IMG/VR virus record: IMGVR_UViG_2534682166_000005
Reading direction: 5' to 3' (one strand)
DNA length: 62,355 bases
Source: a virus
Taxonomy: Duplodnaviria > Heunggongvirae > Uroviricota > Caudoviricetes
Part shown: positions 39,001 to 42,000 of the stretch, piece after piece
How the letters are laid out: every line of letters begins with the position of its first letter
How positions within the stretch are numbered: position 1 is the first letter of the stretch
Made by a program: the position numbers

Positions 39001-42000
39001 CAAACGTGCCAAGTTCTTTTTGTTGATTAACTGTATGATGGTATGCAACATTAATACTGGCTTTATCTGTCTGGACAAAGAAAGAACTCAGATGGCCTTC
39101 ACCACCCTCACCCGGCCATTCCGCTATTCGCCAGTACAAACCAAAGGCATACTTGTTTCTGGTTGTCTCAAGATTGACGTTTTCGGGGATTTTAAACCGG
39201 ACAGCAATTTCCCCGCCTTTTTCCAGTAAAAGTTTTGCCTTGTCTGCAGCAATATCACAGTACATTGACCAGGATTTCGCGCTGTTATTTTTCTCAATTC
39301 GCAGAGCTTTATTGCCGCTGTCATCAACCAGTGTGCGCCTGCCATACACACCGTCCCAGCCATAGGGTTTCAGCTGATTGTCTGTAGCTTTTTTGGCATC
39401 GTAAAAAATTACAGACTCTGAGGTGGTAACCGGTCTGTCTGGAACAACCACCCCGGCAGTACCATTAACAAACGCAGAAGACTTACCCGCGCAGCTCAGA
39501 ATCGCAGTTGCCAGACGGTCGGAAATAATCCCACGGCGAGCCCATGAACTGAAATGGCTCGCCCTGTCCTGTGACGTCCAGGTGGCTGAGCTGTCACGCC
39601 ATTTCGAACCGTAATAACCGATACCCGGAATGTCCGGGTCTTCTTCCGGTTTGTTCGTCGGCACATTCACCCCGTTCTCATCCGTCATGAACGGTACGAA
39701 ATGGATATTCTTTTCCGTTTTGTTTTTGTAGCTGCCGTACACCGTCTGGTACGTGGATTCGTTCTTCTGCTTCCAGAAATACGTCGTGTCCCCGCATATC
39801 CAGGGAACACCGCCAGCAGAGCCACCGACGCACTGGCCTGCCATATCCGCCAGGTCTGCACGGAATTTATCAACCAGCGCACCAAACTGTGCGGCATGAT
39901 TTGCCGGCGTACCGCCAAAATCAAATTCCCCCTGCATCCACACCACGGCAAACAGCACATTTTTCGGGTTCTTCTCCAGTGCCGCTTTTGTTCGACCGAT
40001 AAGGTCCTTATACAGCGGCTTGTCCACACCCCAGCGGGTTGAATTCTCCGAGGCGCCACTCGCGTCACTGTATGTGCCATCAGCTCCGGTGGTGAACGCT
40101 GAACCACCACGACAGCACGGAACCAGCAGAATGCCCGCATTCGCCGGTATAAACGGCAGCAGTTTTTTGGCGATATGCAGCCCCTGCCCCACGGTTCCGT
40201 ACTGCCCCTTTGACAGGTCCGCTTTCGGATGGTTAAGACGGCTCATGTCCTGCACATCATGCAGACAATGGTCCGCCGGAATGATGTCGTTATATTTGCA
40301 TGCTGCACCGCCCGGTGTCACCGTACTGCGACGCGCTAACTGTTTAATACGTGGATCAGGGCTGTCGAATGTATCCGGTAATGGCAGTCCCTCACCGTAT
40401 GACATACCATTGGACTGACCAGCAAGCGCGATCACATAGTAATATTCTGGCGCAACAGAAGGCGCTGAGGTCGTCGGACGGTTGCCTGGCTCCTCTGGTG
40501 ATGAGATGCTCCCCTCACTCACAACTGGCTGGATGAACTCCGCACCATAACCAGCTGTCGAAATCAGCGCACTACCATAAGGCTGCCACCCTTCCTTCAG
40601 TTTTTGAGTTATTCGTTTCGCAAGGTCTGACGGCGACGCCGCCCTGACAACATCATAGTGTTTAAATGCCATGAATCCTCCCGGCCGGGATAATATTGTG
40701 AGTAAAATAAGGAGCGGGCTGAAGTCCGGAAGTTACAGGACAATGGCAGAAGGGAGACTACAGCCCGCAATTCGAAAAAGGTCGCGCAGTTGCGCAGAGT
40801 GATTACTATGGGGTATTATTCGCCAGCTGAAATATTACTTCACGTTTCATTGTTCATTCCTTGCCGCCCGCGTCTCCCAGCGCGGGCTTTTTTGTCCATA
40901 AGAAAGCCCCTCCGGAGAGGGGCTGGAGAGTGGCGCTATGTGCCATTGCATGGTGCCGGGTGCCTCCCGGTGAGTTCAGCCCGGTGCCACTAAACCCGCG
41001 TCATTCTCGTTTTGATAATCAGAGATTATACCGTCACCAGTCGCCCCTCCGCTCAGGGGGATTCACCATGCAGTTTTTTCTAACAAATTCTCATCCGGGC
41101 AGACAACATTCAACTGACTTAATTGTGAGGTATGTAACATTCCCGTTGAACGGATACAAAAAAAGCCAGCCACCAGGGGAGGCTGGCAAACTCGTAGAGC
41201 AAAATGCTGTTACGCAAACTTCGTTACAGGGTTATCCTGCAATACTTAAAATATACAATATTTAGAAAACTAATAGTGCCATATGAGATTTTTAAGATTT
41301 TGTTATTAATTGCGGTCGTACCTTCCTTTCTGTGTACTTTCCGTATAGCTCACAGGATTCTGGGTACAAAAAAACCCGCGCATCGGCGGGTTCGGCTGCG
41401 TGGCAATGTAACCACTCTTATCATGATATGCAGATTTTTACGATCGTAAACTATTTTTTCGCTGATAAAATACAGAGGTTCTCCCTCCCGGCAATTCACG
41501 CTCAACATACCGATCCATCTCAAGCCTCACTCCCAGCATCATCAGCATGCCTTCAACAATCCCCTCCGCTTTGTGAAGGCGTTTACCTATACAGGTGTCA
41601 GAGCACCCATGTTTCCGTGCCAGCGCCATGAACGTCTCCCCCAACACGTAGTAATCAACCAGCAAGTCATGCAGATCGCGATTGTTCCGGTAAAGGCGGG
41701 CTATGCACCCGCATATCACCATCGCATCATCGTCACAGCACTGTGGACGTGATTTTACTTTTTCGGGGATCAGTCCCTTAAATCCGGCAGCAATGGGCGA
41801 CCATGTAACATCCTCATAGTTATTTACCGCCCATGCCCCCCAGCGCTCAAGAACCTGCCGGATATCACGCATCAGTATCTTTACCCCATCCGCGATGAAC
41901 CATAAGGACGCCATTGACGACGGCGTGCTTTTTCGCATCTTTATCATCAATGTATTTTCTGACTGTAGCACGATTGCAGTTCAGTATTCTGGCGACTTCT

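Follow-up and report, generated by a model that had tools for sequence, protein, structure and literature searches.

The Q-to-nanS-p interval of a Stx-phage-like prophage at ynfG of Escherichia coli: a predicted late-operon leader with an unoccupied cargo site

The viral sequence analysed here, IMG/VR record IMGVR_UViG_2534682166_000005 (Caudoviricetes; 62,355 nt at its full length, hereafter the window), holds a lambdoid prophage related to the phages that carry Shiga toxin (Stx) genes. This work concerns the 765 bp between its late antiterminator gene Q and its esterase gene nanS-p (40673-41437), which form the exact gap from the Q stop codon to the nanS-p ATG. The genes of relevance are all encoded on the minus strand, and a position marked p is counted along the interval after reverse complementation (window coordinate = 41438 - p); the features are collected in Table 1. 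An earlier examination made without database searches, called here the sequence-only reading, had described the locus as the layout of Stx-converting phages with an empty toxin slot: a Q of the 933W type, a tR'-like terminator, a gap of about 765 bp, a NanS-p-like esterase and a lysis cassette of the phage 21 type. Our comparative analysis bears this layout out. The Q protein is identical to that of 933W at 143 of 144 residues (99%), scores 170 bits against the Pfam family Phage_antitermQ and is annotated in the O104:H4 genome NC_018658.1 as 'antiterminator Q family protein'. The esterase, named 'SASA family carbohydrate esterase' in the O104:H4 annotation, shares 74% identity overall with its 933W counterpart and ~99% across the first ~390 amino acids (aa), the N-terminal two thirds. 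It is followed by two small conserved late open reading frames (ORFs) in the order of POCJ13, and then by the P21-type holin, the lysozyme and Rz. The Q933-type antiterminator is accompanied by a matching leader with PR', the Q-utilisation element qut and tR', and nanS-p by the P21-type holin and lysozyme, as is characteristic of Stx-like phages.

The left part of the interval represents the leader of the late operon. Over p1-279, its identity amounts to 97.1% to 933W and phi296, 95.5% to phiSTEC1589-Stx1c and 93.6% to POCJ13; the breakpoints of the two arms were taken from local blastn, since global MAFFT alignments across the cargo misalign the right arm. The sequence of PR' is identical to that of 933W, and the qut columns p29-36 are invariant in the alignment with it, so that by analogy with 933W the element would be expected to serve Q in the same manner. 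In Stx phages, the PR'-to-tR' transcript has been reported to bind Hfq and to be cut by RNase E at GU/AUU (cut at the slash, +173), releasing the small RNA (sRNA) StxS, which activates rpoS and represses stx1B (Sy et al. 2020, PMC7547250). With +1 placed at p22, the RNase E site at +173 and the positions A193, G202 and T216 fall on the expected bases. Because the cleavage motif and the three mutated positions fit, and because p195-262 is identical to 933W, the window is predicted to encode a StxS homologue. Its processed 3' form would start at 41243, after GU/AUU at 41244/41243, and the 3' 86 nt of the leader fold with -29.8 kcal/mol (z = -3.2). The 3' part of the leader (41155-41271, minus strand) also gave Rfam matches to RprA (27.9 bits), Qrr and DsrA, all of them sub-threshold (E 0.08-2, far below the gathering scores). 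RprA and DsrA are host sRNAs whose rpoS-activating seed StxS reportedly shares; the likeness was dropped as evidence and is consistent with the rpoS role reported for StxS.

Downstream of the leader, the right arm of the interval (p297-765) reaches 95.1% identity to phi296, a stx-negative phage, compared with 74-75% identity to the stxB-to-nanS-p segment of four fetched Stx phages (some Stx phage records reach 89-91%). Seven terminator-like sites were counted in the interval versus 1.1 +/- 0.9 in shuffled sequences. The sequence-only reading had noted only hairpins (40868..40892 and 40897..40927) and short spurious ORFs in this region. The hairpins are real and correspond to convergent intrinsic terminators, the first to that of the plus strand (40866-40887) and the second to that of STnc100 (40905-40924); the word 'only' does not stand, as the StxS-type leader and an STnc100-family gene are present, together with what is probably a convergent sRNA. 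Stx phages possess these flanking elements too.

The STnc100 match covers model positions 1-206 of 206 with 165.1 bits, against a gathering score of 47. In 933W (L003; further sequence handles are resolved in the caption of Table 1), the corresponding gene scores 208 bits (L003 3778-3983) and starts 75 nt 3' of stxB, with AsxR next to it on the opposite strand. The STnc100 gene of the window matches EcOnc27, which is Hfq-bound in the strain Sakai (Tree et al. 2014, PMC4104026), by position only. Homologues of STnc100 have been detected in vesicles of Stx-producing E. coli (STEC) strains, and the PasD/STnc100 family has been placed directly upstream of a prophage esterase gene (Zhu, Shabalina and Storz, bioRxiv 2026). 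Two tandem diverged STnc100-like copies lie between the cargo site and nanS-p in PhiR5_2 (L008 ~7100-8000) and also in phiSTEC1589-Stx1c (L006 5040-5560), which differs from the window in this respect; one of the copies in the latter phage is annotated as a 99-aa 'hypothetical protein', probably a mis-called ORF.

The candidate sRNA on the plus strand combines a U/A-rich single-stranded 5' part with a strong terminator (fold -18.7 kcal/mol, z = -3.2). The promoter-like element ahead of it has 3 of 6 matches in the -35 hexamer and falls below the threshold of the scan tool; the -35 block CAGTTGCGCAG precedes AsxR in 933W at an equal distance to the -10 element, and it is kept in phi296, PhiR5_2, POCJ13 and phiSTEC1589. 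No Rfam match to AsxR or AgvB (RF02703/RF02702), an anti-sRNA family with a conserved 3' stretch of ~42 nt, was obtained in the interval at E<=10, whereas AsxR of 933W scores 88 bits. Position, orientation and promoter geometry are common to the two, and the candidate would be a positional analogue of AsxR only. The 66-nt multicopy prophage sRNA HnrS (PMC13502914) was considered for this candidate and rejected, being set apart by its description: copies of HnrS co-occur in Sp9/Sp10 with anti-sRNAs that already hold this position, it is enriched in LEE-positive strains (LEE, locus of enterocyte effacement), and its target ribosome-binding site (AGAAG) has no obvious complement in the plus-strand candidate.

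Between the two arms hardly anything remains. Local blastn places the end of the left-arm homology to Stx phages at p279-288 and the beginning of the right-arm homology at p297-310, and the genuinely empty slot, as delimited by these homologies, is a junction of about 17 nt, TGTATCCGTTCAACGGG. Only these 17 nt would separate tR' from STnc100 at the place of ileZ-argN-argO and/or stxAB in relatives. At the same place 933W carries 1.79 kb composed of a methylase fragment, the tRNA promoter (pT), ileZ-argN-argO and stx2AB, phi296 carries 0.47 kb of 933W-like cargo without stx, and the Stx1 phages carry a Pstx1-stx1AB cassette of ~1.5 kb. The absence of toxin and tRNA genes noted in the sequence-only reading was confirmed by every search. 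In tblastn, StxA1/B1, StxA1c/B1c and StxA2/B2 gave chance-level matches only (all E >= 0.7), none of them inside the interval, and the cargo DNA (tRNA/stx) of 933W, phi296, POCJ13 and phiSTEC1589-Stx1c had no blastn match in the window; the stxA and stxB genes that lie between Q/PR' and the lysis genes of a Stx-converting phage are thus missing here. ARAGORN detected no tRNA gene in the whole 62-kb window, and neither did Rfam at the gathering threshold, although the same Rfam run recovered all three tRNA genes of 933W and of phi296; the window lacks the ileZ-argN-argO cassette of three tRNA genes found between tR' and the cargo. The RefSeq annotation of the interval in O104:H4 shows no feature.

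Table 1. Features in and around the Q-to-nanS-p interval (window coordinates; L003, L006, L008 and L009 denote the sequences of 933W, phiSTEC1589-Stx1c, PhiR5_2 and POCJ13).
Feature	Position	Strand	Basis
Q, late antiterminator, 933W (Q933) type, 144 aa	41438..41872	-	identity to 933W Q, Pfam PF06530
Late promoter PR' (TTTACG-16-TATCAT), overlapping the Q 3' end	41423..41450	-	consensus scan; 933W pR' position
qut element as annotated in 933W	41402..41409	-	933W annotation, L003 1708-1715
First leader hairpin with U run	41372..41393	-	terminator scan; 933W 'possible rho-independent terminator', L003 1727-1749
Predicted StxS-type PR' leader RNA, long form	41158..41416	-	homology to 933W
tR', second terminator, GCCAGCC...GGCTGGC with U run	41158..41187	-	terminator scan; annotated in 933W and several Stx phage records
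Junction, unoccupied cargo ('moron') site, 17 nt	41142..41158	-	left/right-arm homology limits
STnc100-family sRNA gene	40894..41099	-	Rfam RF02076
Intrinsic terminator of STnc100	40905..40924	-	terminator scan; 3' hairpin of Rfam model alignment
Candidate convergent sRNA, ~68 nt, inferred ends	40826..40893	+	terminator scan, fold
Plus-strand intrinsic terminator with T/U run	40866-40887	+	terminator scan
Promoter-like element TTGCGC-18-TATTAT	40790..40819	+	direct sequence reading, inference
Small hairpin between STnc100 terminator and nanS-p	40783-40796	- (transcript)	
nanS-p, prophage sialate O-acetylesterase, 636 aa	38762..40672	-	Pfam DUF1737+SASA+DUF6645
DUF1378 ORF, small conserved late	38441-38623	-	Pfam
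DUF826 ORF, small conserved late	38170-38415	-	Pfam
Lysis cassette S-R-Rz	36545..38092	-	Pfam PF04971, PF00959, PF03245
Holin S, Pfam 'Bacteriophage P21 holin S' (PF04971)	37877-38092	-	70/71 identical to 933W S
Lysozyme R (PF00959)	37339-37872	-	161/177 (91%) identical to 933W R
Rz (PF03245)	36545-37003	-	Pfam

The prophage that surrounds this interval adjoins ynfF and lies inside a truncated ynfG in an O104:H4-type E. coli chromosome, and ynfG is an integration site reported for Stx1a phages of Shigella. Its annotated gene set comprises integrase, recombination, immunity, replication, nin, Q, lysis, terminase, portal, capsid and tail genes. The terminase, portal, capsid and tail genes are intact, as is the 8.3-kb gene of a virion protein (LPD38 protein), and the capsid protein is annotated as N4-gp56-like. 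The 25-kb structural region shows 90-94% identity at 82-92% coverage to Stx1a/Stx2a phages, POCJ13 and Stx2-86, and the prophage possesses a short-tail morphogenesis module of the 933W type (Stx-phage-like lambdoid, Sepvirinae-type). Over the first ~14 kb (integrase and early genes), the closest phage is PhiR5_2 with 98.5% identity, stx-negative and propagated on K-12 according to its record; in the same segment identity reaches 95% to phiSTEC1589-Stx1c and 93% to POCJ13 and 75/02. The comparison with these last two, Stx1a phages of Shigella described as integrating at ynfG, agrees with the suggestion of the sequence-only reading that the element is a stx-negative relative. By its gene content, the prophage is a complete-looking, stx-negative member of the Stx-phage-like short-tailed lambdoid group at ynfG.

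Comparison with named phages places the interval among known arrangements. In 933W/Sp5 the order is Q933, PR', StxS/tR', ileZ-argN-argO, stx2AB, STnc100/AsxR, nanS-p (L0105), S, R and Rz. The window agrees with 933W in gene order, in Q, in the leader (97%), in the StxS seed positions, in the location of STnc100 before nanS-p, and in S (99%) and R; it differs in the missing 1.79-kb cargo, in the right arm (75%) and in the place of AsxR, which is not detectable and where a different, predicted RNA lies. With the Stx1 phages POCJ13, 75/02 and phiSTEC1589-Stx1c it shares the absence of tRNA genes between Q and the cargo site and a structural region of ~91% identity, and with phiSTEC1589-Stx1c also the order ninB-ninE-DUF1364-rusA-ninH-Q, whereas in POCJ13 the Q-like gene is shorter and is separated from PR' by an additional ORF. 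A Q-to-nanS-p interval without stx is likewise found in the stx-negative Stx-like phages vB_EcoP_phi296, phi315 and phi367, TL-2011a, PPwrbA_EH2201 and PhiR5_2. Among these, phi296 is 96% identical to the interval over 98% of its length; phages of the phi296 type keep the methylase fragment and the three tRNA genes (a difference of 456 bp from the window), and PhiR5_2 differs in the Q/PR' module. In Sp5 and in seven further prophages of Sakai, Tree et al. (2014, PMC4104026) described convergent sRNA pairs that lie 3' of a 'moron' site located downstream of PR'. The window follows these sites, and the lambda paradigm of PR', 6S RNA and tR', in its terminated leader, cargo position, predicted convergent sRNA pair and conserved late ORF; it departs from them in having no coding sequence as cargo and a plus-strand partner outside the AsxR/AgvB family.

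The distribution of the stx-less junction was assessed in 5,426 complete E. coli genomes, the set used for all genome counts given below. A 101-nt junction query matched 88 of them, always as a single contiguous match; the carriers are O104:H4 and O145 strains, a uropathogenic E. coli (UPEC) strain and isolates whose sources were pork, pigs, cattle and surface water. The whole interval is 100% conserved in 29 complete genomes, O104:H4 outbreak strains among them. A search for the exact 47-nt pattern of the junction gave 26 IMG/VR contigs, in which it stands in at least five mosaic contexts, including contigs with Q933 directly adjacent, contigs with 82-91% Q relatives ~0.8 kb from PR' and contigs with no Q933. 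In an O145:NM prophage the junction stands behind an unrelated Q (222 aa, E = 32), and yet p281-480, a segment with the junction and the larger part of STnc100, matches the window at 98-100% identity. The stx-less, tRNA-bearing junction of the phi296 type was found in 491 genomes; unoccupied toxin sites are the rule and not the exception. An exact-junction scan of the GTDB species representatives gave 0 matches, which, with one genome per species, is uninformative on host range. Because the same junction recurs in 88 genomes and at least five mosaics, one of them behind an unrelated Q, we argue that the tRNA-less, stx-less junction would be an old module exchanged among lambdoid prophages and not a fresh toxin loss.

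On this evidence, we read the interval as the leader of the late operon in a stx-negative prophage of the Stx-phage-like kind, which looks complete, lies at ynfG and has an unoccupied cargo site, and assign to this reading a probability of roughly 85%. The proposed course of events follows 933W. PR' would fire constitutively, and without Q the transcripts would end at tR', yielding the StxS-type leader RNA and from it a processed 3' sRNA; activation of rpoS is known from the Stx phages. STnc100 and the plus-strand RNA would constitute the standard sRNA pair that brackets the cargo site in lambdoid prophages, and in the lysogen both may be made from their own promoters. After induction, Q would load at qut, which should permit read-through of tR', of the STnc100 terminator and of the small hairpin ahead of nanS-p, with consequent expression of nanS-p, the two small ORFs and S-R-Rz.

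Several points weigh against this reading. Promoter use, termination, RNase E processing and read-through by Q are carried over by analogy from work on 933W/Sp5. Counted between the cleavage site and the last base of the U run, the length is ~80-86 nt here versus 74 nt in Sy et al., so that one of the two 3'-end placements would be approximate. For STnc100 the best promoter candidate is TTGAAT-15-GAGAAT, which would start transcription ~20 nt inside the Rfam model. The exact junction was found in 0 of 50,697 INPHARED phage records, and hence the viability of a phage with this junction can only be presumed. An old single deletion followed by spread through recombination would give the same picture as an ancestrally empty site.

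A recent loss of the toxin, in which a former Stx1 or Stx2 phage would have been deprived of stxAB (and tRNA genes) shortly before or within the O104:H4-type lineage, appears improbable to us. The proposal draws on the integration site and the 93-95% integrase/early identity common with POCJ13, 75/02 and phiSTEC1589-Stx1c, and on a left arm 95-97% identical to Stx phages. A route for such a deletion is conceivable in POCJ13, where the 9-nt direct repeat ATAAATGTT around the stx1 cassette (L009 ~5650-5700 and 7120-7160) could mediate it; repeats as good arose in 24 of 2000 shuffles. For the Stx1c phage the repeat TATCAAT..ATGTT (7 nt; L006 3540-3580 and 5000-5045) was equalled in 291 of 2000 shuffles, and the window has one equivalent of a repeat copy (..AATGTTA..) at its empty junction. 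Direct repeats flanking stx1 were discarded as a basis of deletion, being statistically too weak. The window junction TCAACGGG also differs from the product expected of recombination across the stx1 repeats. When a synthetic empty site joining the flanks of the Stx1c phage at the direct repeat was used as a query, this precise-excision product was absent from all 5,426 genomes, and only the window-type allele was retrieved, at ~79-81% identity. The identical 47-nt junction in 88 genomes of unrelated serotypes, in several mosaics and behind an unrelated Q, speaks against a recent event as well, as do the absence of cargo remnants in the window and a right arm that stands far closer to a stx-negative phage (95%) than to four stx phages at 74-75%, some Stx records reaching 89-91%. 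The alternative left by the sequence-only reading, a scaffold that could gain or has lost the toxin genes, is therefore disfavoured as regards recent loss.

That the element is a decaying remnant, a cryptic prophage in which the missing cargo would be a symptom of general erosion, is likewise unlikely. The annotation shows some pseudogene fragments, both in the early region and towards the ynfG end, and no free phage in INPHARED bears the junction. Erosion is hard to reconcile with late genes that are intact from Q to Rz and share 91-99% identity with their counterparts in 933W, a functional phage, with the intact morphogenesis and virion protein genes described above and with the complete conservation of the interval in 29 genomes.

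A hidden protein-coding gene, a replacement moron in place of an empty slot, is highly improbable: both strands carry several ORFs of 30-134 aa, among them one of 134 aa on the plus strand (40861-41265), and PHANOTATE calls small ORFs in the corresponding phi296 region, but each ORF of the interval overlaps with the StxS leader, with a terminator or with the structure of STnc100, the RefSeq annotation of O104:H4 holds no coding sequence there, the sole protein-level match is the spurious ORF over an STnc100 copy in the Stx1c phage, and a 14-codon minus-strand ORF (MKREVIFQLANNTP) lacks its ATG in PhiR5_2.

Other elements were observed elsewhere in the window. Between Rz and terminase, where 933W has bor, a 204-aa ORF (35850-36464) runs on the plus strand, against the direction of the late operon; its O104:H4 annotation is lipopolysaccharide core heptose(II)-phosphate phosphatase, and it may be a lysogenic-conversion cargo gene. 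At 44110-44310 on the minus strand, Rfam reported isrK (69 bits), C4 antisense RNA (66 bits) and, slightly sub-threshold at 44 bits, the c4 a1/b1 target, a trio upstream of an ORF6N/antirepressor gene (43385-44056) that is present in phi296 as well; the region looks like a C4-controlled antirepressor module of the P1/P7 type. The sok antitoxin RNA (110 bits, 46174-46348, minus strand) adjoins a hok-like ORF (46024-46236, hokD in the O104:H4 annotation), and together they are a type I toxin-antitoxin pair within the nin region. A doc-like toxin (45131-45625) and a helix-turn-helix (HTH)/RelE-ParE pair (44763-45080 and its neighbour) are located nearby.

Toxin-free relatives of Stx phages are common and have been described, and the finding, although correct, is ordinary and carries little weight as a discovery. 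Late regions of the Stx-phage type in stx-negative prophages have already been published, as have StxS, STnc100 and AsxR at the cargo site and the occurrence of nanS-p in non-Stx prophages, O104:H4 strains included; outbreak genomes that have been studied intensively contain the identical sequence. The significance of the locus lies rather in what such a prophage may add to its host. StxS-type leaders occur in 683 genomes at 1,182 places, and O104:H4-type genomes (e.g. NC_018658.1) hold the StxS/PR' leader at two places per genome, the second copy lying presumably in the Stx2a prophage. The ynfG prophage would thus contribute a second StxS-type leader and a 933W-type Q to a strain in which a Stx2a phage is already present. 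As there are two leader copies per O104:H4 genome, the two prophages probably share Q/qut specificity, and they could cross-activate each other's late operons. Two further thoughts are offered tentatively, as doubtful but distinct possibilities: the plus-strand RNA at ~40826-40893 could be an undescribed prophage anti-sRNA with a new host target, and, separately, if Q and qut match, as the 933W-type phages suggest, induction of either the ynfG or the Stx2a prophage of O104:H4 could antiterminate the late operon of the other in trans, stx2a included. Finally, long and highly similar arms flank the cargo site, Q and the leader upstream, STnc100 and the 5' two thirds of nanS-p downstream, and if a Stx phage is co-resident or enters the cell, homologous recombination with it could bring stx into this locus or take it away.

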